Of a stretch of DNA of 64,000 nt, positions 12,932 to 29,378 are shown piece by piece. The notes under the pieces are model-generated. The model ran no database searches, was not told the origin of the DNA, and worked only from the letters and a program-made list of their open reading frames with translations. This DNA is from a virus, in IMG/VR virus record IMGVR_UViG_3300022744_000001, positions 258,022 through 322,021 of that record. One strand, 5' to 3'. The position numbers and the translations under genes are program-made. Numbering within the stretch: the stretch's first letter is position 1; every line of letters begins with the position of its first letter.

Positions 12932-14650
12932 TCACTTCTCTCGGAGGGCGAGCGCAAGTTCTCGGATTTCTCCTTCTGGTCGCTCGAACCTGAGAGCGCC
13001 TACCGCTGCCTCGCCAATGATTTGGTCGATCAGGCCCTTCTTGCGCCGCAGTTTTGCGATAACTTTGTGGTCGATAGACTCTCGAGCTTTCCCCTTCTTC
13101 CCGGGGCGCTCGGCCACCAGGTGGATCGCCAAAACCTTCTGATGAGGGGAGCCAATACGAATCATTCGCCCCAAAAGCTGTACGTAGTTGCCCCAAGACC
13201 ATGGCGTCTCGAGGAAGACCATTGCTCCGGCCATCTGGAGGTTGATGGCCTCGGACCCCGCGTCCGTGATGATGATGACCCGAGTCTTGCTCTTGGGGTC
13301 CTGGAACTCGTCCTGCGCCTTCTTGCGCTGTTCAGATTTCTCCGCCCCGGTGATGCGAACGCTCTTGATGTGCTCCTTGGCCAGAAGCTCCTGGAGCCGT
13401 CCCGCCCACGACTCGAACCGGGTGTAGAGGATGACCTTCTCGTCATCGAACTCCTCCGTGAGCAGGTCGATGAGTGCCGCTTCCTTGGCGCTCTTACCCT
13501 CGAAGGTATCTTTGTCAGTGACGTCGTCCCCCTCTTTGAACTTGAGCAGGTGGAGCGAGTTGCACACCTCTTGGGCGTAGATGAGGCCGGTGAGGTCCTT
13601 CGTCTCCTGGAAGTCCTTCAACTCGCCATCGCCCATGAGCATGAGACCCTCGAGCGCCTCTTCATACTTGCGGTCCTCCGCCGGGCTCAGCTCGCACAGG
13701 ATCTCGCGGGTGGTGAGGCTCGGAAGCTCGTCCGACACGACGTGCTTGGGCCGACCGTAGAAGAACGGGTCGATGGTGGAACGGAAGTGGGTCAGGTTCT
13801 TGTACCCGACCACGATGGGTACCTTGGCCCCGCCCTTCACTCGTTGCAGCTCCGTGACGCAGTAGTCGTCCATGAACCTCGTCTTGGACGAGAACGTCCC
13901 GGGCCGGATAACCTGGTAGATGCCAAAGCCCTCCATCAGGTTGTTCTTCAAGAGGGTCGCAGTAAGGCCCCAAACTCGCTGACTCCGCTGAGAAAGGAAC
14001 TTGCACGTTTGATGGGTCTTGGTGCTTGGGTTCTTGAACGCTGTGGCTTCATCGAAGACCACGAGTAGGTCCTTCATGTTCGCCGTAATGGTGTCGAGGA
14101 ACCCGCTGCCAAGAGCCCCCTGCGTGCCCTTCTTGGAACCCGCTGGGACTGCCTCTTTGGTCACTCCATGGTCCCAGTCGCGAACCATCGAGTGGTAGTT
14201 CACGACGAGCAGAGAGGGGGTCTTGGTCTTGGACCAAGTCTCGTAGGCTTGAAGCCGTGTCTTGAGCGACCCCGTTGCCACATGGACCGTGACGCCGGTC
14301 GAGAACTTGTCCACCTCAGCGGCCCACTGCCGAATCGCCGACTTCGGGCACACTACGAGTACCTTCAACGCTGGAGAGCGCTCCCAGAGATAGCACATGG
14401 CCCCAATCGCCTGGAGCGTCTTCCCGAGGCCCGTGCCGTCCCCGAGAATCATGCGGTTCATGGCCAGCAGGTGAAAAACACCTTGAACCTGATAATACCG
14501 CATCCGGAAAGGTTGAATGGAGCCGTCAATTGCGACGATCTCTTTGCGAAGCATGGGAGTCGGTCGTAACTCGACCGTTTTGCTATCTCGAACCTGCTTC
14601 AACTTCTCGTACGTGGCGAGGATCTTGGGGTCGTTCAGCGTGGTGAGCAT
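12932..14650 (-). CDS. SNF2/DEAD-like superfamily-2 helicase (572 aa)
   Basis: Motif I is ILGDGTGLGKTLQAIG. Motif II is VVFDEATAFKN, a DEAH-like box. The C-terminal helicase domain reads …TDAGSEAINLQMAGAMVFLETPWSWGNYVQLLGRMIRIGS. Confidence 0.8.
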   Translation of the reverse strand: MLTTLNDPKILATYEKLKQVRDSKTVELRPTPMLRKEIVAIDGSIQPFRMRYYQVQGVFHLLAMNRMILGDGTGLGKTLQAIGAMCYLWERSPALKVLVVCPKSAIRQWAAEVDKFSTGVTVHVATGSLKTRLQAYETWSKTKTPSLLVVNYHSMVRDWDHGVTKEAVPAGSKKGTQGALGSGFLDTITANMKDLLVVFDEATAFKNPSTKTHQTCKFLSQRSQRVWGLTATLLKNNLMEGFGIYQVIRPGTFSSKTRFMDDYCVTELQRVKGGAKVPIVVGYKNLTHFRSTIDPFFYGRPKHVVSDELPSLTTREILCELSPAEDRKYEEALEGLMLMGDGELKDFQETKDLTGLIYAQEVCNSLHLLKFKEGDDVTDKDTFEGKSAKEAALIDLLTEEFDDEKVILYTRFESWAGRLQELLAKEHIKSVRITGAEKSEQRKKAQDEFQDPKSKTRVIIITDAGSEAINLQMAGAMVFLETPWSWGNYVQLLGRMIRIGSPHQKVLAIHLVAERPGKKGKARESIDHKVIAKLRRKKGLIDQIIGEAAVGALRFERPEGEIRELALALREK

Positions 14651-14678: not shown

Positions 14679-15284
14679 TCAGAACCCGAAGTAAAGACCC
14701 GCTTGAGGGTTTGACCTTAGTGTCCAGAACGAGAAGGCGTACCCAGCAAACGCCCCAAAGTTACGGGTAATGTCGTAACCTACCCCCAGACCCGCAGAAC
14801 GAAACCCTGTTGCCACGTTCACGTTGAGGTCTTTCCAGTAGAAGAATTCCCACAAGAGGCCGACGTCCACCGCATCCTGGGGGCTACGTTCAACCGCGTC
14901 GAGGAAAAGGAAGCTCCCAGCGAACTTGACGCGAAACCGAAAACCCCAAACGTCGGGGACCTTCTTGGCCACGATGACATTGAGGCGAGCTTCGGCATCC
15001 ACCGTGTAGTGGCACCACTTCATCCTCATGGTCAACGGATGAGGGGCCGCCCCCGAGTAGTAGACGCGGCCGTCCTCGTCCGTGGTGATCGTAAACGAAC
15101 CCATCTCGTAGGTGGGTACTTCGGTCTTGAGGCACTTGGCCTCTTCGGCCAACGTGATCAGGTCTTGAAGGTCTTGGTCCGCCACACAGGTACTGCCTGC
15201 CTCGCATTGAGCGAACCCCTGGAGCGGAGCGAGCACAAACGCGAACACTGAGAGCAGCAGAGCCTGGTACATGGGAGACCTCAC
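14679..15284 (-). CDS. secreted protein with a signal peptide and a C-terminal aromatic residue; candidate small outer-membrane beta-barrel (Lom/Ail-like)
   Basis: The N-terminus MRSPMYQALLLSVFAFVLAPLQGFA|QC is a signal-peptidase I type signal peptide. The mature part has alternating hydrophobic strands (GFRFRVKFAGSFLFL; LGVGYDITRNFGAFAGYAFSFW) and ends …GLYFGF. At about 180 aa the mature size fits an 8-strand OMP. Confidence 0.55.
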   Translation of the reverse strand: MRSPMYQALLLSVFAFVLAPLQGFAQCEAGSTCVADQDLQDLITLAEEAKCLKTEVPTYEMGSFTITTDEDGRVYYSGAAPHPLTMRMKWCHYTVDAEARLNVIVAKKVPDVWGFRFRVKFAGSFLFLDAVERSPQDAVDVGLLWEFFYWKDLNVNVATGFRSAGLGVGYDITRNFGAFAGYAFSFWTLRSNPQAGLYFGF

Positions 15285-15682
15285 TCGAAACGGCTTGCCA
15301 CGCGGAGCACCATGGAGGCTGTCTTGGTGCCTTCCTCGAGCTTGCCTTTGTTACTCTTGAACCACTTGGCCACCGAGCTGACCGCGGCCTCCAGGGATGG
15401 CGCTGTGGTGCGACGGATCTTCACGTCCCCTTTCGACACCGGTTTGACCTCGAACTTGTCCCCGCCTGCCGGAAGGATGATGAGCTGCACTGTGAAATGC
15501 GGCTTGTCATCCTGGTACTTCTCGAGGAACTGCCGTTTGGCGTACGCCTCTTCGTCCTCCCGCTCATACGTGACTTTGATGCCACGATGAGTGGTCGAGT
15601 TGTACTCGACTTTGATCAGGTTTCCGAAGAGTGGCTTGAGCTGCTGCTCGAGCGTGTGGGCGGCTTGGGTCAGGTCCATCAC
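15281..15682 (-). CDS. hypothetical protein (133 aa)
   Basis: An ORF coupled to both neighbours by 4-nt overlaps. Confidence 0.5.
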   Translation of the reverse strand: MMDLTQAAHTLEQQLKPLFGNLIKVEYNSTTHRGIKVTYEREDEEAYAKRQFLEKYQDDKPHFTVQLIILPAGGDKFEVKPVSKGDVKIRRTTAPSLEAAVSSVAKWFKSNKGKLEEGTKTASMVLRVASRFE

Positions 15683-16185
15683 TTCTTGTATTTCTTCAAG
15701 AGATCATCGATGCGCTGAGCCGAGACCTTGGAGTTGTCTGTGACCTTGGTTGTAGTCACTTCTGGCTTCACCACGACCTCTTGGGCTACCTCTTTGCTGG
15801 TAACCCCCACGGGAAGCTCCACTTCGATGGGCTTTTCGTTGGGTGGATCAATGACAATCTTGCTGTCGTCCGAAAACACCCCGGTCTTCTCGATGGGAAG
15901 CACCTCGGCCTGGGTTTGCCCCTTGGAATCAGGCTGCCCAATCTCAATGGGCTTGCCGTCAGGCGCAACACGGCCTTTGTCCACCGTGTTGGCCTTCTCA
16001 ATGGCCTTCGAAGGGTCATCCTCGGGCTTGCCCAGGAGCTTCCCCAAGAGGCCCCCAAACTTGGCCTTCTTGCCAGTCATGAGGGTGACCACGACCAAGA
16101 CAACGGCCAGAATCAGCCCCAGGTACTTCTTGGAGCCTTCCCAAAGCTGGAGGAGCTTGGCCTTGATCCAATCCCACATGGTCAA
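15679..16185 (-). CDS. type-II (N-in) single-pass membrane protein with a Lys/Pro/Glu-rich extended C-terminal domain; possible i-spanin-like or TonB-like periplasm-spanning protein
   Basis: The transmembrane segment is YLGLILAVVLVVVTLMTG. It is followed by a KKAKFGG…KPEDDP…PPNEKPIEVELP…KPEV low-complexity region. The call is made from topology only. Confidence 0.5.
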   Translation of the reverse strand: MTMWDWIKAKLLQLWEGSKKYLGLILAVVLVVVTLMTGKKAKFGGLLGKLLGKPEDDPSKAIEKANTVDKGRVAPDGKPIEIGQPDSKGQTQAEVLPIEKTGVFSDDSKIVIDPPNEKPIEVELPVGVTSKEVAQEVVVKPEVTTTKVTDNSKVSAQRIDDLLKKYKK

Positions 16186-16589
16186 TCCCCTGCCTTGGGC
16201 TCATCCGCTGGAGGCAGAGAGTCCAGCACCGGCGGCGGGATCGAAGGCGGGTCCGATGGCAACCCGGGGACAGGCTTCGACTTCAACCACGAGCGAACGC
16301 GGCCGTAAACCAACGCCGACAACATGCCGCAAACGGAGCCGAAAAGCATCCGGCCGCCCGCAGAGGTTCCCACCATCGCGGGCCACTCAAACGCCTTCAT
16401 GAAAAAGCCAAGGATCGTCCCGTTCGCAATGGGCCCAATCGGCAAGGCAATCTCAGCGTAGTAACGGTTGGTCCGGATTTTCGGCCAGACCGTCTCGAGT
16501 ACCCGCCGAATCACGTAGGTCATGGCATAGATGCCAAGACACAACATGAGCATTTGTGCGCTAAAGAACACCTCAAACAACTGATCCAT
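16182..16589 (-). CDS. small membrane protein with three predicted TM helices; possible holin
   Basis: Hydrophobic segments are LMLCLGIYAMTYVI, IALPIGPIANGTILGFFM and MLFGSVCGMLSALVYG. The C-terminus is Pro-rich. It is the first gene of a 4-gene coupled cluster. No endolysin was identified nearby. Confidence 0.5.
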   Translation of the reverse strand: MDQLFEVFFSAQMLMLCLGIYAMTYVIRRVLETVWPKIRTNRYYAEIALPIGPIANGTILGFFMKAFEWPAMVGTSAGGRMLFGSVCGMLSALVYGRVRSWLKSKPVPGLPSDPPSIPPPVLDSLPPADEPKAGD

Positions 16590-16639: not shown

Positions 16640-16945
16640 TCAGTCTTCGGAGACCGAAAGGGAGTCGGCCACTTCCACTGAGTGGTTCGTGCCTTGCCGT
16701 GGCGGCTCAGAGGGCGCTGGAGCGGGCTCCGGCTCAACCACCGGCGGCGGAGGCGGAAGAACCTCCCCCACCTTGAGCTGCTCCCACTTTGAGCACCAGA
16801 GAAGACGCTGGCGGAGGTCGTCCCGTTGCTGAGAGGTCAGGTGGGGATTCGACTGCAATTGCAGAAGATGCTTCCGAGCCTCAGCCGCGCCTTTGGCCCG
16901 GATTTCCGCTGGTACATCGTAAAGGGTCAGAACGCCACGCGCCAC
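16640..16945 (-). CDS. hypothetical protein with a PPPPPVVEPEPAPAP linker (101 aa)
   Basis: An ORF lying between the structural block and the membrane cluster. Confidence 0.4.
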   Translation of the reverse strand: MARGVLTLYDVPAEIRAKGAAEARKHLLQLQSNPHLTSQQRDDLRQRLLWCSKWEQLKVGEVLPPPPPVVEPEPAPAPSEPPRQGTNHSVEVADSLSVSED

Positions 16946-16963: not shown

Positions 16964-19900
16964 TCAGAAGGTTCGGTTGGCCACTGTGATCGTGTTCGGG
17001 TCCACATCATAGTGCACGTGGTTTGACACCAGGGGGTGACCCTCGATGCGGTACAAGTCCGCCGCCGCGTACCCTTCTCTCGTGCCATTCGTCCCGATAA
17101 TCACCTCGGAGGTGTACCCGTCGTTGCTGAGCCTGGAGGCGTTTGTGACCACGAGCATCATTAGCTCGTCGCCCGCACTGGCCTCGTTCGCCCCCACGTT
17201 GGTAACCGAGTTGCGCACCAGGAATGCCCGACCTGTGATCAAGTTCGTGTCGCGGCCCGTGCCCTCCTGGTGGTCGTACGTGGCATGCAGCTCGCCGCCC
17301 GGGTGGCTACCCGACCCAAGGAAGACCGAGCCACCGCGGTTCGTGCGGAAGTTGGTCAACAGAGCATAGTTGCCCGTCTCGCCATCCACATGCACCAGGG
17401 TGTCCCCAGGAACCCCAGGAGACCGTTCCGCCGTCTGAACCTCAACTTCTTCGTACTCGGCCGACGAGGCAACCAAGCTCGAGATGCTGGTTCCAGTACC
17501 AACCGAGTTGGTGTACCGGAACGGAGCCTTGTTCGTGTCGGAAAAACTTCCGCCATGGAACTGGTAGTCCTTCCAGAACGCACCCAGGGGGAGGCGCTCT
17601 GTGCACCCGAGATAGTCCTGGCTTACCTCACGGTCATTCGTGACCGACAGGGTCGAACTCAAGTGCCCCGGAAGGATGGGGGGCCGAGGAGCCACGCCCG
17701 AAGAAGGTGGGTAGTTAGTCAAATCTTCTCGGCCCACGTTGCGGAAGTCGTACTGGTTGACTTCGACGATGTCCCCGGAAAGGCGACCGGTGCCGAGAGT
17801 CGTCACGAATCCAATCGAAGCCAAAATCTCGAGTGGCTTCTGGTTTGGACGCGTGAGGTTCGTGAGGTCGATTTCGGACGATTGAACCTGGTAGGCCACC
17901 GAACTCGACAACGGGCCCGCGGAGTAGGGGATGTCCACGTAGCTCGTCTGGGAGCCCCAGGCGTCGCCCTGGTAAGGCGTACGGCTGTAGTTCACGAGAG
18001 CCGTGTCCGCCGCCGAAATGGGCGCCGGGATGATGGCCGACGGGCCTGCGATGAAATTGCTGAGGTTGGTCGCCCGGTTGCCCGTGTTGGCACCCGTGCC
18101 CGTAGGACGGTTCCGCGAAAGCACGAGGCGGAACGGCTTGCTGAGGTCGAACGCACCACGGTCGAAACCAAAGAGGCTGGCCTCGATGACATAGTGGGCC
18201 GACTCAAAGCTCGCGATCGGGGTCGGAGACTTGGTCAGGTCAAGAACGTCCGCATTGAGCACGAACGTCGAATCCCCGTCGTCGTCGATTTCGATCCAGA
18301 AGGTCGGGCCTTTGAAGTCCTGTCGGAGCAGGTTCTTCGCACCACCGCCACCGATGCTCGCACGAGTGGAAGGGTTGAAGGCCGAGCCATTGGTCTTGTA
18401 GTCGCTGGCCTCGTACACCGCGAAGAGGCGAGCGATACCATAAAAGGGCGGAAGCTCGAGGCCCTTGCGCCCCATGCCACGCTGGTCGGTGAAAAAGCGA
18501 AGGCCCGCAAAGGTGTTGCCACCGAACGAGAACGTCGCGTTGTACGTGGCTGGAGTGGTCGAAACGCCAGAGAAGTTACCCGTGGACAGCGCTGCATAGG
18601 ACAGCGTGCCGTTCACGTAGTTGATGTACTGGCGGTTGTGGTCCGGGTCGTTGAGGTTCGTGTTCAACCCCTCAAGCGACTGGAGCATGTAGTTGATGCC
18701 GTTGTGGAAGTTCGTCCCGTTCACAGGGAGGATCGGCACTCGCACTTCGCCCCAGCCAGGTACCAAATGGCGAGGCAACGTGACGTAGAAGTTCTTCCGG
18801 TTTGCATCGGAATCCGTGGTGCCACTGAAGAGGCCCAGCGGGTCCGTGGTTGTCCACTTCGACGTCGTCCCATCCAGCTTCTTGAGCGGCATGAGCGACT
18901 GTGTGTGGTGGATTCGATAGTCGATGCCCGTGGCCGTGGGGATGTTCCGGTCCACCGTGAACGTGGTTGCACCCACGGCACCCGTGATTCGGTACCTTCC
19001 AGCCGCAAGGCCCGTGTCGATGATGAGGGTGTCATCCGCTTGGACGTTGGCACCCGAGAAGTTCTGAGTGCTGTCCGTGAACGTCAGGGTCAGGTTGGAA
19101 ACGCCAGCCGTCCCCGTCGTCACAGGTGACGAGTAGGGATTGGCCGACGTGCCGTCCAAGGCGTGAACCTGGGTCGGGAACGACACGTGGCGGAAGGGGG
19201 ACAGGATAACGGTCTTCGACCCCACGTCCGCATAGGCTTCCGCCGTAACGGGGAGGAGATTCTTGTACTCGTTGTTCCGGTACTTCGACCAGAGGAGCGC
19301 CCAAGAGGTTCGGAGAGCAGGCAGGGGAGACGTGGAAATGTTCACGCCCGACTGCTGCACCATGAGCGTTGCACTGGGGTTATACAGCAGGATGTTGTGC
19401 AGAGCGTCCGGGCGACGGGACAAACCACGCCCACCGCCGTACTGCACGTGCATCGTGATGTAGACGTCCCGAGTAGACGGGAACGGAGAACCCACACCCT
19501 TGAACTTGATCGTAATGTCGTCGTTCGGTCCGGGATTGTTGGGGGTCACCTTGTAGCGGTGAGGCGGAAGAGGGGCTTCGTCGCCGTCCAAGCGAACTTC
19601 AATCGCACCACGACCCCTACGAATTACGTAGGAAACACTCGAGTCCGTGGGGAGGTTTTCATCCACATGAACTGAATCGTTTCCATTTACCGTGTCAATC
19701 AGATAGGAACCGGCAGCGGGTCCAGTGAAGATGACCAGAGTGTCCCCAGGAAGCACCGAACCCAAGTTGTTGGTGTCCGTGAAGGTCCGGGTGCCGTTGG
19801 TGCTACCCGTCGAGCCACTTGCAGGAGCCTCATTCAAGAACCGAACCTGGTCGCCATCAGCACCAGGGACCGTATTCTTGAACTGCGCAATGGCGACAGT

Positions 19901-21547
19901 GATTTCGTCGCCATTGCCGTCCCCAAGGGTGGACTCGGCGGTCCATTGACCCGGGGTAGTACCCGAGGGGGACGCCAAACTCGTCACCGTTGCGCCAATC
20001 GCCAAGGAGAAGTTCAGGTTCTGCACCTGAGCAAACCCGGGGGACTGCACTGCGGTTGCCGAGGGAGTGCAGATGACTTCGACCTTCTGCTGCACCGGAG
20101 CATCCGAATAGATCATGCGGATGTTGTCGGGAGCATCGATCTTCGTCACGCCCAGACCAGCCGCCGAAGCGCTGATACGGTCCTGGTACGCCACGAAGGT
20201 TCCCTGGGTGCTGCCACCGGAACGCTTCCAGTTCGCCCGGAGCTGCCCCTTGAGGAGCTTGTCCAGGTTCGACTGCAAAAGCGTGGCGTAGTTGAACCCG
20301 TTGGGATTCACAACGTGACGAAGGTCCAGGACGTCGGTCGCCGCAATCTGGTCTGCAAAGAGGCCGTCCGGGCGGCCGGACAACACCTTCACAGGGGCGC
20401 CCGCTGGGTGAGCCTCTGCCTTCGTCCCGTTGACTCCGCGACTCACACCACTCACGGTCGTCCCCGTGATGGCTTGGTACGTCATCAACTCGTCCCCAAT
20501 TTGGATGAGCACTGGGGAAGTAGGCGAAGCCGGGAGCGGAATGTCCGTAGCCGAAGCCAACGTAAACGTCGTGGCGGTCGAAGTCATGGACGACGCAATC
20601 GACGGGGTCGTCGAGAAGGTCCTGATGCCGGTACGGTCAGTCGCCGTGGGGTTGCGGTTGAAACCACCGTTCAAATTCTGGCTGGGGTCGGGAGACCAGG
20701 CCACCCCGTTGCGGCGGAAGACGACGCAAAGCGGGATTGCGTAGACATACCCATCCACCGTGCCGAGAGCGTTCTCCGTGCCGTCTCCAGCACGCCAGAG
20801 GCCCGCATCGCCAAGCTCCTGCCGCATGTTGGCGAAGGTGTACGACGTGGCTGACGAGGCCGCGCCCTGAGCCTTCACCGTGGTGGGGTCGAAGCCATCC
20901 GGATAGGTCGCGAGGCCAATGAGACCCTTCACGACACGGATGCGGTATTGAACCTGGACGCGCTGAGTGGTCTCAAACCCAATAGCCGGGTCCTGGATGT
21001 CGTCGCTGAGGTAGCTGTAGCCGCCCTCGACGTTGCCATAGCGGTAAATGGCCGAAGCCGACGGCTTGTTCAGCGTGCTCGGAGTCGAAGGCACGCGAGC
21101 CTGCCAAACCTCGAGAAACACGAAGTCGGAACGGAAATCGCCGCTGTTGGACGGGGGCGGGTCGAGCGTGATCTTGTTCGTCGTATCGACGTTGTTGGGC
21201 GAGCCCGGAGGAGTACCGGTCTTCGTACCCGTCACCGGGATGAGCCACCCGTTGACCACAGCCCACATGATCGAACGCTTCTCGCCACTGCGCTGACGGC
21301 CAAACTGAAGCCAATTGCTCCAGCTCGAGTCAGTGACGAAATCCTTCGAAGTGTTGACTTCGTTCCCCAACCACCCCGAGGGGGTGTTCCGCATGATGAA
21401 CTGCTGACGCCAATCGGTGTCGAGCTGCTGCATCAGGTTCAACTCAGCATCCGTAGGGGGCTTGCCCTGCTGCCAGATGACTTGAGTGAACTGAGCTTGC
21501 TTGGGGTCCAGGACGCGGCTCACGCCGCCGCCAAACTTGTCCGCCAT
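16964..21547 (-). CDS. giant virion structural protein P1 (1527 aa); its N-terminal ~350 aa are paralogous to the 867-aa protein at 31543..34146
   Basis: Shared blocks between the two proteins are MADKFGGGVSRVLDPKQAQF/MGQKNFGGAVSGYLDPTGRAF, DFVFLEVWQARV/DLLVLEVWRKL, TQRVQVQYRIRVV/TKRVQIQYRLRAV and GLWRAGDGTENALGTVDGYVYAIPL/GLWRAGDGDPSNALGTVDGYMYAIPL. The composition is Ser/Thr/Gly/Asn-rich and beta-type. Confidence 0.8.
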   Translation of the reverse strand: MADKFGGGVSRVLDPKQAQFTQVIWQQGKPPTDAELNLMQQLDTDWRQQFIMRNTPSGWLGNEVNTSKDFVTDSSWSNWLQFGRQRSGEKRSIMWAVVNGWLIPVTGTKTGTPPGSPNNVDTTNKITLDPPPSNSGDFRSDFVFLEVWQARVPSTPSTLNKPSASAIYRYGNVEGGYSYLSDDIQDPAIGFETTQRVQVQYRIRVVKGLIGLATYPDGFDPTTVKAQGAASSATSYTFANMRQELGDAGLWRAGDGTENALGTVDGYVYAIPLCVVFRRNGVAWSPDPSQNLNGGFNRNPTATDRTGIRTFSTTPSIASSMTSTATTFTLASATDIPLPASPTSPVLIQIGDELMTYQAITGTTVSGVSRGVNGTKAEAHPAGAPVKVLSGRPDGLFADQIAATDVLDLRHVVNPNGFNYATLLQSNLDKLLKGQLRANWKRSGGSTQGTFVAYQDRISASAAGLGVTKIDAPDNIRMIYSDAPVQQKVEVICTPSATAVQSPGFAQVQNLNFSLAIGATVTSLASPSGTTPGQWTAESTLGDGNGDEITVAIAQFKNTVPGADGDQVRFLNEAPASGSTGSTNGTRTFTDTNNLGSVLPGDTLVIFTGPAAGSYLIDTVNGNDSVHVDENLPTDSSVSYVIRRGRGAIEVRLDGDEAPLPPHRYKVTPNNPGPNDDITIKFKGVGSPFPSTRDVYITMHVQYGGGRGLSRRPDALHNILLYNPSATLMVQQSGVNISTSPLPALRTSWALLWSKYRNNEYKNLLPVTAEAYADVGSKTVILSPFRHVSFPTQVHALDGTSANPYSSPVTTGTAGVSNLTLTFTDSTQNFSGANVQADDTLIIDTGLAAGRYRITGAVGATTFTVDRNIPTATGIDYRIHHTQSLMPLKKLDGTTSKWTTTDPLGLFSGTTDSDANRKNFYVTLPRHLVPGWGEVRVPILPVNGTNFHNGINYMLQSLEGLNTNLNDPDHNRQYINYVNGTLSYAALSTGNFSGVSTTPATYNATFSFGGNTFAGLRFFTDQRGMGRKGLELPPFYGIARLFAVYEASDYKTNGSAFNPSTRASIGGGGAKNLLRQDFKGPTFWIEIDDDGDSTFVLNADVLDLTKSPTPIASFESAHYVIEASLFGFDRGAFDLSKPFRLVLSRNRPTGTGANTGNRATNLSNFIAGPSAIIPAPISAADTALVNYSRTPYQGDAWGSQTSYVDIPYSAGPLSSSVAYQVQSSEIDLTNLTRPNQKPLEILASIGFVTTLGTGRLSGDIVEVNQYDFRNVGREDLTNYPPSSGVAPRPPILPGHLSSTLSVTNDREVSQDYLGCTERLPLGAFWKDYQFHGGSFSDTNKAPFRYTNSVGTGTSISSLVASSAEYEEVEVQTAERSPGVPGDTLVHVDGETGNYALLTNFRTNRGGSVFLGSGSHPGGELHATYDHQEGTGRDTNLITGRAFLVRNSVTNVGANEASAGDELMMLVVTNASRLSNDGYTSEVIIGTNGTREGYAAADLYRIEGHPLVSNHVHYDVDPNTITVANRTF

Positions 21548-21594: not shown

Positions 21595-22248
21595 CTAAAA
21601 CAAAAGTGCCCAGGACCCGATGAAGACCCGACCACGTACGGTCACGTCAGTTACCCGCGTAAATCGAAGAATCACCTGGGTACCTTGAGAACCATTAGGG
21701 ATAGTTAAAAGTGCTTTGTCCGTTGCGGAGATGAAGTTAACTCCACCGTCAAAGCTGACTTCCGCAGTCACATCAACGTCCGGGGCCACTTCTCGGTAGG
21801 ACCGCTGAAAGGCTGAGGTGCGGGCATCCGAATCGACAACCTCGAAAAGCTCGTAGGTCAACGTCGCTTGAGCCGGGCCTGCACCAGGGCCGCCCCACGT
21901 GATCCCCAGCGGAACCGTCTCGAGCACCGGGACTTGGACGTCAGTGGGGTACAAAGCCACCGCCCCATTCTTGCCGACAAGCACGCCTGTGCTGTTCGCC
22001 AAGTTCACCCCGCTCTCATCGAGCATATCGTCGTAGGCAATCTGGGTGAAGAGGCCGTAGGTACCCAAAATCCCCGCGTACTTCTTTGTGATGAGGTCCG
22101 GGAGGTCCGTGGGGTTCTGCACGATCACGTCGTCAGGCACCCGAACCACGTAGTTTCCCGTGATCTGGGTTTGAGGGGGCACCCCAAGTGACGCCACTAC
22201 GTCATTGATTTCGTCGTTGTACTGGTTGATGAGGTAGTGAGTGCTCAC
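21595..22248 (-). CDS. virion structural protein (217 aa)
   Basis: An ORF in the structural operon. The upstream giant gene overlaps it by 4 nt. Confidence 0.6.
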   Translation of the reverse strand: MSTHYLINQYNDEINDVVASLGVPPQTQITGNYVVRVPDDVIVQNPTDLPDLITKKYAGILGTYGLFTQIAYDDMLDESGVNLANSTGVLVGKNGAVALYPTDVQVPVLETVPLGITWGGPGAGPAQATLTYELFEVVDSDARTSAFQRSYREVAPDVDVTAEVSFDGGVNFISATDKALLTIPNGSQGTQVILRFTRVTDVTVRGRVFIGSWALLF

Positions 22249-25200
22249 TTGTTCTCTCCCTTGAGGGGCTTCTGACCGTACCTGCCAGGCACCCCCGACC
22301 GCACATTCGTGATGCGGAGGAGGTTGACCTTACCCGCCGGAGTCGGATGGATGTGGTTTGCCTTGGGTGCCGGAAGAATCGTGTTGCCAACCGTCTCGTT
22401 GGGCATACCCACGATGGCCCCGCTGATCTGCCAGTACGGACGGCTCATGTGCCGCATACGCAGCGAGATGTCGCTGAAGCCTTCGAAGTCCACGTCTTCC
22501 ACAAACACCTGGTCGGCACTATCTACCAACACCGGGTGTGCGTTATGGCCGATGGTCCACACGAACACGTCCTCGCGGGGTACCGCGTGGAACCTGTGAC
22601 TGGTCGGGACCGCCACGGACACTTCACTCTGGTCCGTGCTGATCGTGATAGCCTTCGGGGCGCTAACGTCGCCGTCCACAACGTGGAAGATGAATTCGTT
22701 CGTGTAGGTTCCGTGCTTGATCGAAACCGTTGTGTTTCCCGTGGGCACCGGAGAAATCGAGCCCTTCAAGAAGCAGTGTTGAGTAGCGGGGGCGGTAACC
22801 ACCGAGCTGCCCGAGGAGGCACGATAGTACCCCGTAGTGGAACCAACCGACCCGACATAATCGATTTTGACGATGTCGTCGCGCTGGACTGAGCTGTACA
22901 ACTCCCCCACCGTAGTGAGGGCACTGATCACCATCCCGTCCAGATAGCCGGACGGCCAGCGAGAATCGCTTGATGTCAGCATGTACGAGCGGTTGCCGCT
23001 CGGGGGCGTCGAGTCCGTGTTATTCGTCGGAAGGCTGCCCGCCGAAGTAATACGGTTGTTCTCGAGGTAGGTCAGGTATCGAACACCCGTTTGAATCGGG
23101 GTCGTCAGGGCGGAGAAGCTCAAAACACGACCCGCACTGCCTGCCGTTGTCCAAGAACTCAACGAATCCAAGTCTACCAAGGTCTGCGAAATGGACTCAG
23201 CCTCAGTGCTCAAGAGCGTAGAAAGCTCGTCCGCGACCTGGAAGGCCACCGAGATAGTCCACTGAGCGGACACCGGATTCCATTTCGCGTGGGCTGCTCG
23301 AGCAACGTACTGGCTTGTGGAAGCCGAGTTGATCGATCCATAGCCCACACCAGGCTTGGAGCCGTAGAAGGACGAGGAGTTGCCCGAACCAATGGGGTTG
23401 GAGAGGGTGACCTCGTGGACGACTGAGAGGTTCAAGTCGATGAAGTTGACCAGGGCCGCGTAACTGCCACTGATGTTGTTCACCTTCGACATGCGCACCA
23501 TGGCAAAGTGGCTGCCATTGAACGAGATCGAGGCGATGTTGTAGGGGGTAGCCTCGGAGCTGAAATCGAAGGTTACCGTTTTGCGAAGCGTCCAGTTCGG
23601 GGTGACCACGTGTGCATGCGCAATGGTACCGAGGTCCGCCGAGTTCGCAGTGAAAATAACGAAGTCCCCACGGCTCTCCAGGTAGAAGAAGCCCAGGATG
23701 TTGTCGTCGCTGATCGCGCTAATCGTGGTGTCGAGGGAGCCAGCGGGCCGCACCAAAACACTCTGCTGCTTGAGCGTGCCCGAGGGGTTGAAGAACGCCA
23801 GGCTGGTATCCAGCACAGGCAGCGCCCCTTCTCCAGCCAGAATCATTCCGTACACGGTATACCCAATCGACGTGCTGTCCGCCGAAAGGTCCGCGCTCAG
23901 CTGAATCTGATTGGTGGCACCATTTACGGCGACAACCTTGTAGACGCCATTCATGTTCGAGAACTGGGGGTCGCCGAACACGGTACCCGAAGGGGGAGCA
24001 GTACGAACAATCTGGACTAGGTCACCCCTCTTCGCCAGAAGGTTCCCAGAAGCCGTCAGTTTACCATCGGAAGAGATGGTCCCAAGGTTCCCACCCCCGT
24101 TAATCCCACTGGAGTTGAACGCAGCGGCGTTGGCGATGTTGACGTTGGAGCGGAACCCATCCTTGGGGATCCGATACATGCTCAGGTACGGGCCGTACTT
24201 CGAAGCCACCACGAACTGAGTCCCATCCCAAAGAATACGGGGGGACGAGATCTGGTAGGCCGTCGTTAGGTGCGAGAGAACGTAGGTTGAAACGTTCACA
24301 TTGAGGGGCTCATTCAGGTAGCTCGAACTCACAAGTCCGATTGGACGAGTAGAGTTCAGGATGGTGATACCCAAAGTGCAACCAGAGTTGAGGTTCGCGT
24401 TGACACGAGGAACCCCGCCAACACGCCAGGCAACCGCGAGCTTTTCCCCAGACCAGCAAACCTCAAAGGTCAACGCGTCCTGGACCTGCGGGTTGTTGAG
24501 CACCACCTGCGAGCCATCTGGCTTCACAACCGTAGGCCCACCGATACCGAAATCGAGATCCGCGTACCCAACCAAGTTGATCCAGTCGTTCTGGTACTGG
24601 TTGAAGTTGTAGGTCTTGGCCCGTACGCCAGTAAGCTCTTCGCCTTCGGTGCGGTCGTCCACGCCGAGGTCAAAGAAATAGAGCCGGTTTTCCGCGGCGA
24701 TCACGCCAAGGAACTGACTGCCCGTCCAAACGACTCGACCCGTGTGTGCTGGGTGCGAGTAATCACTGAACCCAACCCCCGCACCACCGTTCTGGAAGCG
24801 CGAGCCGCGAGGCATGAGACCGTTTTGAACACGGAGGCGCTTGCGGATCGGGTTACGACCCTCGGCATCCGTAAAGACCGCGCACACCGAGGTGAACCAC
24901 GAGTCCACGAAACGAGGATCGGGGCTATCCACCTGCGAATAGAGCGGGTCACCACCCGAACCAGCGTAAGGGTTCGGGCCGTGGTTGATGTAGAAGCTCT
25001 GAACACCCCAGTGGATGAATGCGTTGCGGAATCCATCCGTGTCGAAGAAGTTGCTCGAGGCCCCGATGCCGCCATGACGAGTCAAAACGTGTTTACGCGT
25101 CTTCTCCGCGAAGTTCGTGACCGACGCTCCCGACTCAAGCGTCAAGCTCTTCAAGCCCGACTTCCAAGGGCCGAAAGTTTGGCGGAAGGCACGAAGCTGC

Positions 25201-28200
25201 TTGTTGAAGCTCCCGGAGAGGCCCCACTTCTCAAGGTCCACGGCGCAGTAGAAGTTGTCACCCCAAGCGATCGCCATGTAAGGCGCTTCGGACGGGGTTT
25301 GAACGGAGGTACCACGCTTCGGGGCGCCTACGCAGATGCCCTGGAAGCTGAGGTTCGCCGACAACCGATAGCCCTCTACCAGGTCGTTCCACTGGTTCGT
25401 GGTCAACCCAGAGATCGCATCGGTCACCACCGACCCGAACATATTGCGGTTCAGGACTTCCTGCTTGCGGTCGTAGATGGTGGACCCGCTCGAGTCCGAG
25501 TTCAAAGCATGAGTCGTGTAGGCGGTAGAGACGATCATCTCCCCGTCCACGGACACACGGAACCCAGGGGTCTTGAAACCCTTGGTCGTAGACGCGCCAC
25601 CGGAGAAAGCGCCGTCCGCAACCTGGTACTCAATCACCGAGCCAGAGATTGCGCCCGTGGGGGCTGCACTGAGGCGCACCACGTGCTCACTGAACACGCT
25701 CGAGATGCTGACCGTGTTCCCGTTGTTGGGGAAATAGATTCGCGTCCCAGAGTCCACCGTGATAGGCAGGAAGGCTCGAGTGGTCGCCGAGACCGACCCC
25801 ACACCGTCTTGCCCGAAGAGCATGTTCGGATCGATGAGGTAGTGGCTACCACTGAAGAAGAAATACGCCCCCGAGTAGGAGTGGTATGAGCAAGGGGTCG
25901 GGCTCACAACCACCCAGTCCTGACCGTTCCATGTGATGTCAGGAATCAACGAGGGGTACTCGTTGTAAACCGAGGAGCACTCCATGAAGTAGAGCAGCGG
26001 GGCGACCTCGTTGTAAGGGCGCCACGTGTTCGACTGCACGTTGCGATAGGGAACCATCGGGTCGCGACTACCCATAGAGCGCTCAAGCGTGTCGCGGTCC
26101 TGTGGGGTGAGAACGACCGTGCCGGTGTTCGGCGTGTAGTAAATGTCGAGGATGTTGAAGCTCGTACCGAGATGCTCACGGTAGGGCCACGGGTTCATGG
26201 ACCCGTGCGGGAAATCGAGGTAGGCGATGTTGAACCCGTTGTCCCAGTTCTCGACGTTCGAATTGCGGTGAGCCGCAGTCGTGTCGAAGTTCTGGTAAAC
26301 CGCCAACACCTTGCCGTTCGGGCCCTTGCTCAGGCGCACGAAGTCCGGCTCACGCTCCTGGTCGTAGTAAACCGAAGCGTCCGGTCGGAAGTTGGTCGTA
26401 TTGGCGTGGCCTGCAACAACTTTGGACGTCGTAGACGCACCGGTACCGCCATTGACAGTGCACGCCATGACCCAGCATAGCGGCGCAATGGCATAGGTGT
26501 AGCTCCCATTCGGGGGCACCGTCCCGTCGTCATAAACGACGGTCAGGTTGGCCGCACTTGAATCTATCACCACACCGTTCTTGCCGTTGGTTAGATCCAA
26601 GAAACGGCTGCCAATACGAACAGAAAGGCCAAGGGTGTCGCCGGTCCAGTTCGTAACTGCGGGGTCAGTCAATACCCCAGAGGCAATTGTAGCCCCAGAA
26701 CCCGTGACGATCTTATGCCGACGCACCGAGTAGGCGACAACGAACTCGTCATTGACCCCGGACCAAGCCACATCAGTAGACCCGATCAAAGACCGAACGA
26801 TAGAAGGGCTGGCGTTGTTCGGTGAGTTGGTCGTACGCTGCAAAGCCAGACTGACTGAACCAAACGAGAGATTGAGAGTGTAGACGTAGAGGTTCGGGGA
26901 AACCACGCCCCCCGCAAAGTTCACCGTTGCAATGACCGCGTAGTTGCCGTTGACCGCCACCGAAGGCGTAGTGGTCATGCCGTTGCCGGTGTTGGACACG
27001 GTATCGGTAAAACGAACCGAATACTGAGCGGTCTGAGTGTTGTACCCCAGAGACACATAACGAGTCACCGGGTACCCTGCCCCAGGGGTGGCATCCTCTA
27101 CCCAAACAACAACGTAGCCGCCGTGGTTCTCATCGAACGCAGCTCGAGGGTAGTGACCCGTCGTGTGGTGGGCAGACTGCAACCCCACCGAAGCTCGGGT
27201 AAAGAGGGGGAACGAAGTCCCTGTCATGGCCTTGAGGTCGATGCCCTTGTACGCGTTGTCGCTGTAGACCATCGAGCCGTCAGGACGCAACTCGTTGAAG
27301 TACACGATGTCGGCAGTCTCATCCGCAACGAAGATAGCCCAGACCCTGCGAATCGGATTCCAAACCACCTCATACCCTTCGACGGTATTCGAGGTGTTGG
27401 TGCCATTTGCGTACTGCCAGGTGTTGGGGATCGTCGTGGTTCCATTCCAAGTGGGGTCGTAAACACCCCATGGAGTGTTCGCGCCAAACTTGAACGCCCC
27501 AGAGGTCGTCCCCTTGACCTTGGTAGCCGCCCCCTCGCCCTCCACAGTCACTCCGGGAGGAACATAAACTGGGCTGTTCGCGATGAACCGGAACTCGCCG
27601 CGCTTGAGGTGCACAACGCCATTGCCGGTGAACGAAGCCGCTAACAGCGCGTCATTCAAATGAGCATAGGAGTCCACCCAAGTCTCAGTGGAAACGCTCC
27701 CTTGCACGGACAGGTAGTTGAAGTCTGCGGCCAACTCCCGCGGATTGTTCGAGGTGGAGACCGTGATCGACGTTTTCTCTTGGATGGGGGCTTTGGAGAA
27801 CTCGTTGCCGAACCGGTTGTCCCCGAAACTCACCATCTGCACCGCGTTTGTGCCACGGTAGATGCTGTAGTTGCCGCTCGGGTCCCAACCATCAACGAAA
27901 TCGTCGAGGTAGACCGTCGTCCCATCACTGGAGATGTCTACAACCAACCAAGTCAAACCGTTGCTGACAACCAAGTCGCCACGGCGCACACCCAGGTTCT
28001 TGTAGTTCAGGGTGCCTTCGTTGAAGTTGGTTGTCCCGTTGTCCGGAGCAGCGTTTCCGCTGTAAACCAACGTGCGGCCAATACGAATGCCGCGGAACGA
28101 GTCAGGCGACTCGAGGTTGATCTGACCGCCGAAATCCGTGTTTGTCGAGCCAGTGTTGGCCCGAACCATGAAATCATTGCCGTCGGTCGTGGCCCCAAGT

Positions 28201-29378
28201 ACCCACCCCGTCCCGTTGTAATGAACCTTCGCGGGGGTGAGGGTGCTGAACTCCGTGCTGTTCGGGACAAACAAACTGTCCGCACTGCGAGCGGTCAGGC
28301 TTTGGTCCACCGCGAAGAACACGGCGTAGAGCTGGAGTCGCCCAGTCGTAGTGCTCACGCCACCGTTGCCGCCGCTCGGCTTGATGTCATCGCCAGCTCG
28401 AGGAGCGACCGAGAAGCGGACGATGCCCGCCTTGTAGTCGATCGTCATGCGCTGGTCAGCCGCCGGGATCGTGCTGTCAATGACCGGGTTCAGAGTCGCA
28501 ATCGGCGAGGTGAGATCAGGTGCAGTGCCGCTCGCGTTGCTCTTGTAGAGCACAACGCGGTAGCCAAGGTGGTCGAGCGCAAGACGGGGCCCAGACGTGT
28601 TCGGAGGGCCGAATACGGCATCCGCACGGTCCACAGAAGAGTCCGCCCCAAAGAGCGGCGGGACGAGGTTGCGGACGCGGTCAGCGTTGATGGCATTGAG
28701 GGTGGGGCCCGCCTGCGTATGCAACGTCGAGCCGGGGACCACCATCATGAACGACTGCTCACGCCCCAGAGGGCCGGAGCCCGGGACCGCAAACAGCTGG
28801 ACCACATTGGGTCGGATGATTGTGTAGGGGTACCCCAGGGCATCCATGGTCAAAGCCGAGGATGCGTTGTTGACTCCAAGGGAGTTGGCCGCCACCGAAG
28901 TAATCGAAGCGACCTTGTACTCGTTCGCCCCCGAGCCACTGGGTCGATTGCGGATGATCAGGTAGTCCCCAACCTGAACCCCCGCCGCCACCATGTCTAC
29001 GGAGGTCCCCCACGTGATGCCGCCAGGAGAGGTAACTGCCCCATCTTCGGTTGTGACGTTGACAACCGTGCTAGGGCCGTACCACTGAACGGTCTCCGAA
29101 GGAACGTTATCCCTAGCGATCTGCGTAATGGTCAGAAGCCCAGTACCAGGGTAGACCGGGGGACGAATCGAATAGATGTCCCCCAAGTCGATGGTCGGCG
29201 CCGTGCTGTACGGCTCCGCATTGATCGACCCCACCCCCACCACGCCCTCCGGAGACAACCCGGAGTCGCCCACCGTGAGAGCCTTGCCGCCCGCAAAGAA
29301 ATCTGACTTGCGAAGCTGTTCCAGCTCCAAACGAGTCAGATTCGAGTAGGTACCTGTTGCGGAGTATGAGCCTGCCAT
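22245..29378 (-). CDS. giant virion protein (2377 aa), beta-rich; fibre, spike, decoration or injected-protein candidate; not a tape measure
   Basis: A single uninterrupted 7.1-kb ORF with Ser/Thr/Gly/Asn/Val-rich composition and no long Ala/Glu/Lys helical segments. All overlapping antisense ORFs are Arg-rich artefacts. Confidence 0.85.
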   Translation of the reverse strand: MAGSYSATGTYSNLTRLELEQLRKSDFFAGGKALTVGDSGLSPEGVVGVGSINAEPYSTAPTIDLGDIYSIRPPVYPGTGLLTITQIARDNVPSETVQWYGPSTVVNVTTEDGAVTSPGGITWGTSVDMVAAGVQVGDYLIIRNRPSGSGANEYKVASITSVAANSLGVNNASSALTMDALGYPYTIIRPNVVQLFAVPGSGPLGREQSFMMVVPGSTLHTQAGPTLNAINADRVRNLVPPLFGADSSVDRADAVFGPPNTSGPRLALDHLGYRVVLYKSNASGTAPDLTSPIATLNPVIDSTIPAADQRMTIDYKAGIVRFSVAPRAGDDIKPSGGNGGVSTTTGRLQLYAVFFAVDQSLTARSADSLFVPNSTEFSTLTPAKVHYNGTGWVLGATTDGNDFMVRANTGSTNTDFGGQINLESPDSFRGIRIGRTLVYSGNAAPDNGTTNFNEGTLNYKNLGVRRGDLVVSNGLTWLVVDISSDGTTVYLDDFVDGWDPSGNYSIYRGTNAVQMVSFGDNRFGNEFSKAPIQEKTSITVSTSNNPRELAADFNYLSVQGSVSTETWVDSYAHLNDALLAASFTGNGVVHLKRGEFRFIANSPVYVPPGVTVEGEGAATKVKGTTSGAFKFGANTPWGVYDPTWNGTTTIPNTWQYANGTNTSNTVEGYEVVWNPIRRVWAIFVADETADIVYFNELRPDGSMVYSDNAYKGIDLKAMTGTSFPLFTRASVGLQSAHHTTGHYPRAAFDENHGGYVVVWVEDATPGAGYPVTRYVSLGYNTQTAQYSVRFTDTVSNTGNGMTTTPSVAVNGNYAVIATVNFAGGVVSPNLYVYTLNLSFGSVSLALQRTTNSPNNASPSIVRSLIGSTDVAWSGVNDEFVVAYSVRRHKIVTGSGATIASGVLTDPAVTNWTGDTLGLSVRIGSRFLDLTNGKNGVVIDSSAANLTVVYDDGTVPPNGSYTYAIAPLCWVMACTVNGGTGASTTSKVVAGHANTTNFRPDASVYYDQEREPDFVRLSKGPNGKVLAVYQNFDTTAAHRNSNVENWDNGFNIAYLDFPHGSMNPWPYREHLGTSFNILDIYYTPNTGTVVLTPQDRDTLERSMGSRDPMVPYRNVQSNTWRPYNEVAPLLYFMECSSVYNEYPSLIPDITWNGQDWVVVSPTPCSYHSYSGAYFFFSGSHYLIDPNMLFGQDGVGSVSATTRAFLPITVDSGTRIYFPNNGNTVSISSVFSEHVVRLSAAPTGAISGSVIEYQVADGAFSGGASTTKGFKTPGFRVSVDGEMIVSTAYTTHALNSDSSGSTIYDRKQEVLNRNMFGSVVTDAISGLTTNQWNDLVEGYRLSANLSFQGICVGAPKRGTSVQTPSEAPYMAIAWGDNFYCAVDLEKWGLSGSFNKQLRAFRQTFGPWKSGLKSLTLESGASVTNFAEKTRKHVLTRHGGIGASSNFFDTDGFRNAFIHWGVQSFYINHGPNPYAGSGGDPLYSQVDSPDPRFVDSWFTSVCAVFTDAEGRNPIRKRLRVQNGLMPRGSRFQNGGAGVGFSDYSHPAHTGRVVWTGSQFLGVIAAENRLYFFDLGVDDRTEGEELTGVRAKTYNFNQYQNDWINLVGYADLDFGIGGPTVVKPDGSQVVLNNPQVQDALTFEVCWSGEKLAVAWRVGGVPRVNANLNSGCTLGITILNSTRPIGLVSSSYLNEPLNVNVSTYVLSHLTTAYQISSPRILWDGTQFVVASKYGPYLSMYRIPKDGFRSNVNIANAAAFNSSGINGGGNLGTISSDGKLTASGNLLAKRGDLVQIVRTAPPSGTVFGDPQFSNMNGVYKVVAVNGATNQIQLSADLSADSTSIGYTVYGMILAGEGALPVLDTSLAFFNPSGTLKQQSVLVRPAGSLDTTISAISDDNILGFFYLESRGDFVIFTANSADLGTIAHAHVVTPNWTLRKTVTFDFSSEATPYNIASISFNGSHFAMVRMSKVNNISGSYAALVNFIDLNLSVVHEVTLSNPIGSGNSSSFYGSKPGVGYGSINSASTSQYVARAAHAKWNPVSAQWTISVAFQVADELSTLLSTEAESISQTLVDLDSLSSWTTAGSAGRVLSFSALTTPIQTGVRYLTYLENNRITSAGSLPTNNTDSTPPSGNRSYMLTSSDSRWPSGYLDGMVISALTTVGELYSSVQRDDIVKIDYVGSVGSTTGYYRASSGSSVVTAPATQHCFLKGSISPVPTGNTTVSIKHGTYTNEFIFHVVDGDVSAPKAITISTDQSEVSVAVPTSHRFHAVPREDVFVWTIGHNAHPVLVDSADQVFVEDVDFEGFSDISLRMRHMSRPYWQISGAIVGMPNETVGNTILPAPKANHIHPTPAGKVNLLRITNVRSGVPGRYGQKPLKGENK

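Follow-up and report, generated by a model that had tools for sequence, protein, structure and literature searches.

A candidate lysis or envelope cassette with a putative non-lipoprotein outer-membrane component in a huge phage

The window analysed here is a 64,000-nt stretch of the IMG/VR virus record IMGVR_UViG_3300022744_000001 (positions 258,022 to 322,021). The genes under study lie at its positions 14679-16589, where four open reading frames (ORFs) follow one another on the minus strand (16182-16589, 15679-16185, 15281-15682 and 14679-15284) and are named g1 to g4 in this order. On one side the cluster is bordered by the gene of a 1527-aa protein with PHROG tail matches, and on the other by an SNF2 helicase gene followed by those of DnaB, primase and PolA, which bears out the location between structural and replication modules given in the original prediction, made from the letters of the window. 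The best explanation of g1, g2 and g4 is that they form a conserved envelope-targeted module, which ends the tail-gene run of an uncultivated phage of ~450 kb with a diderm host; on sequence grounds, the module is best regarded as a lysis or envelope cassette in which the putative outer-membrane component is no lipoprotein.

In the recorded gene calls, which begin at ATG, the products of g1, g2, g3 and g4 measure 135, 166, 132 and 197 aa, respectively, and the junctions are +2, -1 and +8 nt; the 4-nt overlaps originally described throughout the cluster exist only with the upstream TTG, GTG and GTG starts (Table 1). Since 26 of the 46 junctions in the window are <=10 nt, the tight packing of g1-g4 is unremarkable. 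The GC content at third codon positions (GC3) of the four genes, 0.72-0.79, is similar to that of the remaining window, and a scan for promoters and terminators returned sites at chance level only. The four genes are also present on a 58-kb Logan contig (exact-sequence match), and the same proteins are encoded on a contig of 448,224 bp, so that the 64-kb window represents ~14% (about one seventh) of a huge-phage genome.

Table 1. Features of the g1-g4 locus and its borders (coordinates of the window)
Feature	Coordinates	Strand	Basis
g1, 135-aa membrane protein with Pro-rich C-terminal tail, holin-like	16182-16589	minus	family hydropathy and charge profile
g2, 166 aa (168 aa from TTG 16185), predicted bitopic inner-membrane protein	15679-16179	minus	13 homologues
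g3, 132-aa soluble ORF (133 aa from GTG 15682), between g2 and g4	15281-15679	minus	self-match only
g4, 197-aa predicted secreted protein (201 aa from GTG 15284)	14679-15272	minus	signal peptide, four Cys, C-terminal barrel-like domain
g4 signal peptide, residues 1-21, cleavage GFA/Q	15210-15272	minus	signal peptidase I site
g4 six-strand barrel-like domain, residues 109-197	14682-14948	minus	AF2 model
g4 C-terminal beta-signal Q-A-G-L-Y-F-G-F	14682-14705	minus	fits zeta-x-G-x-x-aromatic-x-aromatic
Tail protein, 1527 aa, upstream border of the module	16964-21547	minus	phrog_1101 'tail protein' E 5.9e-9; syntenic in relatives
g0, conserved 101-aa soluble protein between tail protein and g1	16640-16945	minus	~18 related loci, same position
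SNF2-family helicase, downstream border, first gene of the replication block	12932-14650	minus	PF00176 E 3.3e-29, PF00271 E 1.1e-17; syntenic

Predicted products of g1, g2 and g4

The product of g1 has three hydrophobic segments (about residues 7-27, 45-66 and 80-96), which appear in the family-averaged profile of 38 members as hydropathy peaks of 2.4, 1.9 and 1.25, the third transmembrane domain (TMD) being weak. Flank charges in the same 38-member alignment (-1.3 / +2.7 / -0.9 / +1.8) fit an N-out/C-in arrangement, and g1 has the predicted topology of a class I holin, that of a small protein with three TMDs, N-out/C-in. It belongs to a large phage family, for which 399 cluster representatives were found at E<=1e-3. 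Of 38 diverse members of this family, nine match phrog_1299 'holin' (E 8.7e-7 to 0.01), and the best of these matches (E 8.7e-7) spans TMD2-TMD3 of the member concerned. Pfam holin matches of the family are at noise level, and an hhalign comparison of g1 with lambda S105 was negative.

In ~20 loci g1 adjoins g2. When the contexts of distant members of the g1 family were searched for an adjacent endolysin, only tail-like giant proteins were found or, in an unrelated phage contig (L012), a 116-aa protein composed of a TMD and a helical part. In this contig (4436-6549), a gene for a 184-aa protein with an HExxH motif is followed by the g1-family gene and then by that of the 116-aa, i-spanin-like protein; a 256-aa protein without a family match is also encoded after the g1-family gene. 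Such an arrangement could represent another lysis cassette, with a membrane protein of the g1 family at its core.

The second gene, g2, encodes a protein with a single, strong TMD at about residues 20-35 (nt 16075-16122; Kyte-Doolittle hydropathy 2.15). Across the family the N-terminal flank of the TMD has a net charge of +2.3 vs +1.2 for the C-terminal flank, which fits an N-in/C-out orientation. An N-terminal TMD with this orientation is expected of inner-membrane spanins (i-spanins), and in g2 it is a matter of prediction only. The protein consists of a variable cytoplasmic N-terminal tail, the TMD, a nearly invariant juxtamembrane motif QIGGLLGKLLGK and a conserved C-terminal domain of ~110 aa. 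Its AlphaFold2 (AF2) model, built from 13 sequences, is poor (predicted local distance difference test, pLDDT, 65). Beyond the TMD it shows only short strands and two short helices, and a coiled coil is absent; the helical or coiled-coil periplasmic domain of i-spanins (PMC6139136, PMC12894885) is thus not predicted in g2. The gene is always the one directly upstream of g4, unless an insertion lies between the two.

The gross topology of g2, one N-in/C-out TMD with a sizeable periplasmic domain, also matches the definition of class III holins (PMC12894885), and a conserved amphipathic Gly/Lys motif adjoins its TMD. The protein might be such a holin, of T4 gpt-like topology, with g4 as a periplasmic regulator and g1 in some other membrane role. 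This is very improbable, since the established members of class III are close homologues of gpt or, for class IIIB, of phiKZ gp142 (PMC12894885), no PHROG annotated as holin is matched by g2 at E<=1, none of its Pfam matches passes the threshold, and the outer-membrane signals of g4 would be left unexplained.

At the N-terminus, a hydrophobic h-region and, after it, AxA-type sites are present in all 36 aligned homologues of g4. The first Cys is preceded by Q, E, D, S, T, A or V, at a variable distance from the AxA site, so that g4 is not a lipoprotein; the lipobox of outer-membrane spanins (o-spanins), [LVI][ASTVI][GAS]C (PMC6139136), is absent. At the extreme C-terminus lies a beta-signal that agrees with the consensus zeta-x-G-x-x-[aromatic/hydrophobic]-x-[aromatic/hydrophobic] (PMC10945584). 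It is found at this position in 42 of 53 distinct members of the g4 family vs 4 of 724 control ORFs. The cleavable Sec signal peptide and C-terminal beta-signal that characterise substrates of BAM, the machinery for beta-barrel assembly, are therefore both predicted in g4.

The mature protein probably has two parts. In the N-terminal periplasmic domain four Cys are conserved among the 36 homologues, and the AF2 model built from these sequences (pLDDT 88) places a helix and a small sheet at residues 32-95; six long strands follow at 109-195 (pLDDT about 97). In this predicted model a hairpin at 80-95 could add two strands to the six confident ones; the barrel may close with six strands, recruit the hairpin or form only as an oligomer. 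One face of the strands is composed of 31% Phe plus Val and Leu and varies among homologues (1.27 bits), whereas the other, which shows strong conservation (0.57 bits, p = 1.4e-4), consists of 31% Gly together with Ser, Asp, Asn and Arg. As judged from the sequences, this pattern is that of a lipid-exposed exterior with a packed interior, opposite to that of a soluble barrel. A predicted six-strand barrel with a textbook beta-signal is unusual.

Similarity searches place g4 in a new family, without a recognisable relative in Pfam, PHROG, NCBIfam, PDB or GenBank phages. A weak match to Pfam OMP_b-brl (E 0.039) was below threshold. Foldseek comparisons with PDB and BFVD gave nothing significant; the fold matches were mostly barrels, many of them from the outer membrane, with a six-strand barrel as the best, and the best (weak) matches in BFVD were phage 'Opa-like' and 'OMP beta-barrel' proteins. 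No similarity to lambda Lom was detected by hhalign.

It might also be supposed that g4 works alone on the outer membrane, either as a decoy or incomplete barrel directed to BAM, which would jam or perforate this membrane late in infection, or as the subunit of an oligomeric barrel pore, with g2 as a periplasmic chaperone or timer. A perfect C-terminal beta-signal on a six-strand unit, which is too small for any known natural outer-membrane protein (OMP), would suit such a role, and a preprint describes a protein-antibiotic family that inhibits BAM via beta-signal mimicry (bioRxiv 10.64898/2026.09.25.754295). We give this possibility little credence, as the conserved Gly/polar interior and hydrophobic exterior resemble a stably folded membrane domain and not a decoy.

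The properties of the individual proteins largely agree with the original prediction. The three hydrophobic peaks in the g1 family profile correspond to its three-TM small protein, the strong TMD of g2 with the more positive N-terminal flank to its type-II membrane protein, the lack of a hydrophobic segment in g3 to its 133-aa soluble protein, and the sequence GFA/QC of g4, with the same lack of a lipobox across the 36 homologues, to its signal-peptide protein that is not a lipoprotein. The g2 protein, whose periplasmic domain was described there as Lys/Pro/Glu-rich, is indeed rich in Lys (25 of its 168 residues), but Pro (11) and Glu (12) were overstated, and the OMP-type C-terminal beta-signal of g4 was overlooked. 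The pattern of a three-TMD protein, a bitopic protein and an outer-membrane protein also recalls the TonB/TolA-ExbB/TolQ systems; this analogy was dropped because a partner like ExbD/TolR is missing, the size of g1 is far below that expected and no family match was found.

Conservation of the module and the variable slot between g2 and g4

The 49 homologues of g4 share 44-70% identity with it and lie on contigs that reach 512 kb, and a profile scan of IMG/VR added 25 further loci on viral contigs of up to 529 kb. No match to the g4 pattern was found in a scan of 185,579 GTDB genomes. Gene order was established by running hmmsearch on all related loci. Throughout the closer group (about 25 loci in huge phages) the order tail protein, g0, g1, g2, g4, SNF2 helicase is kept. 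In eight relatives (L002, L014, L025, L027, L031, L033, L035 and L036) the slot between g2 and g4 is empty, and the two genes abut or overlap by 4 nt; the junction is -4 to +3 nt in L002, L014, L027, L031, L033, L035 and L036. An o-spanin gene is embedded in, overlaps or immediately follows that of its i-spanin, and g4 is the next gene after g2, cargo aside.

The identities of g2 and g4 drop in step with that of the SNF2 helicase (for example, g4/g2 identities of 57/48% vs 71%, 42/42% vs 54% and 33/34% vs 43%), and on this basis their divergence behaves as for vertically inherited core genes. Divergence of g1 is faster than that of g2 and g4. In a distant clade, where g4 is 28-33% identical to that of the window, the g2-g4 pair persists. 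A lipoprotein gene beside the pair takes there the place held by g1 in closer relatives, and one locus (L036) encodes a 189-aa lipoprotein downstream of g4. The lipoproteins of this clade (L031 4379-5377, L032 4357-5217, L035 4399-5373 and L036 6699-7268) are Gly/Ser-rich, with a Cys-rich C-terminus and the lipobox FLAC, IIAC or LVGC.

It could be argued that g1, g2 and g4 are unrelated membrane 'morons' that became neighbours by chance and have no joint function, since tight junctions are ordinary in this genome and mobile elements insert between the genes. This explanation is improbable in view of the adjacency of g2 and g4, which survives down to 28% g4 identity and takes the form of abutting or 4-nt overlapping genes in eight distinct relatives, and of the order g1-g2-g4, which is kept despite repeated insertions.

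The slot between g2 and g4 is variable. In the window it is occupied by g3, whose homologue search returned the self-match alone among 5.8 billion proteins. There is no match to g3 in any related locus, nor in Pfam, PHROG, PADLOC, NCBIfam or PDB sequences, and BLASTP against lambda R found nothing. In relatives the slot may hold a GIY-YIG/NUMOD3 homing endonuclease (L005), a recurrent helical protein of ~295 aa (L006, L013, L015 and L022) or further, other ORFs. In L029 a GIY-YIG/NUMOD3 endonuclease lies just 5' of g4, and no g2 was found in the L029 sequence examined. The g1-g2 and g4-SNF2 junctions carry insertions as well.

Because g3 has no homologues and the slot varies among relatives, g3 is, as far as sequence comparison can tell, strain-specific cargo outside the conserved module and not the missing lysin. 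A cryptic endolysin in this place was rejected in view of the zero homologues, the absence from related loci and the lack of any family or PDB-sequence match. The idea that the 133-aa protein might be a lysin is not supported, and neither is the treatment of the four genes as one unit: g3 is not conserved, and g1, g2 and g4 form the conserved set.

The cargo of these junctions has some features of its own. GIY-YIG/NUMOD3 genes are located at the g2-g4 and g4-SNF2 junctions (L005 5342-6004, L029 1274-2089, L022 6546-7517 and L023 4818-5807), and both junctions are hot spots for mobile elements, one of which is occupied by g3. Otherwise different slot proteins (L006 5098-5973, L015 5106-5987, L017 4494-5576 and L023 3786-4202) have in common, at their N-termini, ~15 residues with the motif L-x-x-[LV]-D-x-x-I-A-A-[RK]-V. 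This could be a scar left by recombination or else a shared peptide for targeting or interaction. In a 470-kb relative a class-III aminotransferase gene (PF00202; L002 6600-7949) lies between g4 and the SNF2 helicase gene.

Flanking genes and searches for lysis functions

Every large ORF of the window lies on the minus strand, and among its products are a Baseplate_J protein and several proteins of 1100-2400 aa. The giant structural proteins (2377 aa, 22245-29378; 1804 aa, 36667-42081; 1527 aa, 16964-21547) are essentially without Pfam domains; sub-threshold Big_5 and weak PHROG tail matches are their only matches. Among ~47 window genes checked, TMDs or signal segments were found only in g1, g2, g4 and a 712-aa protein (60158-62296), which has two N-terminal hydrophobic segments. 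The small protein g0 is always located between the tail protein and g1; its N-terminus bears the motif MARGxLTxYDVP...SNPHL...SKWE, and its tail is acidic and rich in Pro. No family match was found for g0 in Pfam, PHROG, PADLOC or NCBIfam; by analogy, a function as tail chaperone or, as described for phiKZ gp143, as cytoplasmic regulator of lysis is conceivable. On the replication side, the SNF2 (about 1032 aa) and DnaB (651 aa) helicases of several relatives carry inteins with LAGLIDADG domains (L003 6610-9708, L006 6619-9720 and 10606-12561), and the copies in the window (572 and 498 aa) are intein-free.

The best match of the polymerase is to an uncultured 485-kb phage, at 34% identity. The segment 12000-22000, which includes the cluster and its flanks, has no DNA match among GenBank phages, and no protein match was found there for g4, g1 and two members of the g1 family. 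Family searches with g0-g4 in Pfam, PHROG, PADLOC, NCBIfam and PDB sequences gave nothing significant.

No Pfam lysozyme, amidase or transglycosylase was detected at E<=1 in the four ORFs of the cluster or in three ORFs beside them, or at E<=0.01 in 43 other ORFs of the window. The earlier remark that no muramidase or amidase is seen is thereby borne out for this part of the phage, and a negative result from 14% of a genome says little. A scan for lipobox-containing ORFs in all frames of the 64-kb window, including the alternative frames of g1-g4, returned none, and was validated on loci that do carry lipoproteins. Since there is no such ORF, the window contains no canonical o-spanin or unimolecular spanin (u-spanin) that would make g2 and g4 redundant. 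Likewise, no embedded or overlapping o-spanin was found in alternative frames.

The position of the module immediately downstream of the 1527-aa tail protein gene suggests another function, superinfection exclusion or receptor masking. An outer-membrane g4, helped by g2 and g1, would then block or modify the receptor of the adjacent tail protein and either protect the infected cell or stop progeny from adsorbing to debris. The lambda gene lom sits between J and the tail-fibre gene, and the genes of T5 Llp and Cor lie beside tail-fibre genes. This alternative had been raised in the original prediction, and the outer-membrane features of g4 and the neighbouring tail gene still speak for it. It fits less well than lysis because the pair is clade-wide, diverges at the rate of core genes such as that of the SNF2 helicase and includes a coupled bitopic inner-membrane partner that would be left without a role, whereas the known examples are single accessory genes, mostly encoding lipoproteins, with a patchy distribution. 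PADLOC gave no match and g4 has no similarity to Lom, and we regard exclusion as unlikely.

Proposed role and comparison with known systems

Tentatively, and as a reading that falls somewhat short of probable, we propose that g1 is a holin-like protein and that g2 and g4 are a non-canonical, spanin-like pair of inner- and outer-membrane proteins, the endolysin being encoded elsewhere in the genome. The proposal concerns the likely mode of action and not placement in known families; none of g1, g2 and g4 could be assigned to a known holin or spanin family. The initial analogy with holin, i-spanin and o-spanin stands with respect to topology, gene order, core conservation, the coupling of g2 and g4 in relatives and the weak phrog_1299 matches of other g1-family members, and does not extend to membership of a known family. 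A joint, essential envelope function is the most economical explanation because a holin-like g1 is combined with an inner-membrane protein followed by an outer-membrane-directed one, all with the conservation of core genes. Lysis is favoured among such functions because it is a known process that needs exactly these parts (as defined in PMC6139136 and PMC12894885), and g2 and g4 agree with the spanin rule that the gene of the inner-membrane partner is followed immediately by that of the outer-membrane partner (PMC12894885). By analogy, the module would most likely be the membrane-acting half of a lysis system.

The proposed mechanism is as follows. With its three TMDs in N-out/C-in orientation, g1 would act as the holin. 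The g2 protein would be held in the inner membrane and expose its C-terminal domain to the periplasm, and g4 would be exported by Sec, cleaved by signal peptidase I and oxidised to a form with two disulfides. BAM would then insert the six-strand barrel-like domain of g4 into the outer membrane, while its N-terminal domain of ~85 residues would stay in the periplasm. We infer that g2 forms with g4 a complex that bridges the periplasm, equivalent in function to a two-component spanin, and that the complex disrupts the outer membrane after peptidoglycan has been removed by an endolysin encoded elsewhere in the 448-kb genome.

Several points weigh against this proposal. The g1 of the window has no Pfam or PHROG match of its own, the link of its family to phrog_1299 is a weak one of annotation, and in other phage lineages g1-like genes lie within runs of large tail-like genes without a recognisable lysin neighbour. 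In the distant clade no g1 was detected, and a lipoprotein of 286-332 aa is encoded upstream of g2 in three of the five loci (L031, L032 and L035). The periplasmic part of g2 is neither alpha-helical nor coiled-coil in its AF2 model (pLDDT 65), and hhalign found no similarity to lambda Rz (probability 0.1). Unlike o-spanins, g4 is not a lipoprotein, and we know of no spanin with a beta-barrel anchor. No endolysin adjoins the module in the window locus or in any relative.

A bolder version of the spanin-like reading, which on the present sequence evidence appears doubtful, is that g2 and g4 represent a lysis device of a new class that spans the envelope, equivalent to a spanin but with the outer-membrane subunit held by a BAM-inserted mini beta-barrel of six strands per chain in place of lipid; the barrel would be either monomeric (below any known natural OMP size) or oligomeric. 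If true, the pair with its beta-barrel-type anchor would be a third solution to the problem of outer-membrane disruption, beside lipoprotein spanins and cationic disruptin peptides. To our knowledge, the mode of lysis of most huge phages is not known, and, if the reading is true, the pair would also provide a signature by which annotators could search for a clade of phages of 286-529 kb.

Known two-component spanins (lambda Rz/Rz1, T4 PseT.3/PseT.2 and phiKZ gp141/gp141.1) resemble g2-g4 in that the gene of an N-in/C-out inner-membrane protein is followed by that of an exported, outer-membrane-directed protein. The two genes often overlap, the exported partner has conserved periplasmic Cys residues, and the pair is a core-conserved one of the late region. 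In contrast to o-spanins, g4 lacks a lipobox and ends in a barrel-like domain that bears a BAM beta-signal; with its 197 aa, it is also far larger than Rz1 (40 aa mature; PMC6139136) or T4 PseT.2 (83 aa). In contrast to i-spanins, the periplasmic domain of g2 is not a predicted coiled coil and has no sequence similarity to Rz. Spanin cassettes differ further in their surroundings, as there is no endolysin or canonical holin beside g2-g4. In a survey of Gram-negative phages, 91/677 (~13%) lacked a recognisable spanin (PMC6139136).

Class I holins, such as lambda S105, and the members of PHROG 1299 are, like g1, small proteins with three TMDs, N-out/C-in by the positive-inside rule, with a basic start of the C-terminal tail and fast divergence, and some members of the g1 family match phrog_1299 weakly. 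On the other hand, g1 has no similarity to S105, its TMD3 is weakly hydrophobic, the rest of its tail is Pro-rich and acidic, and its family is found beside tail genes and not beside lysins.

Lambda Lom and the Ail/Lom/OmpX family share with g4 the signal peptide, amphipathic beta-strands, C-terminal aromatic residue and tail-gene neighbourhood. They differ from it in that g4 has six confident long strands and not eight, an extra N-terminal domain of ~85 residues with conserved Cys and a coupled inner-membrane partner, and in that no sequence or significant Foldseek similarity connects them. A six-strand beta-barrel has been obtained by design in the soluble protein BBn6 (PDB 9XZT), whose authors consider that the fold occurs rarely, if ever, in nature (PMC12478100). 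BBn6 is a soluble design, and the arrangement of g4, with a variable face rich in Phe, Val and Leu and a conserved Gly/polar face, is the reverse of that of a soluble barrel. If membrane-embedded, g4 would test the lower size limit of BAM substrates, and it may be a natural example of the six-strand barrel, a fold that protein designers deemed essentially unsampled by evolution.

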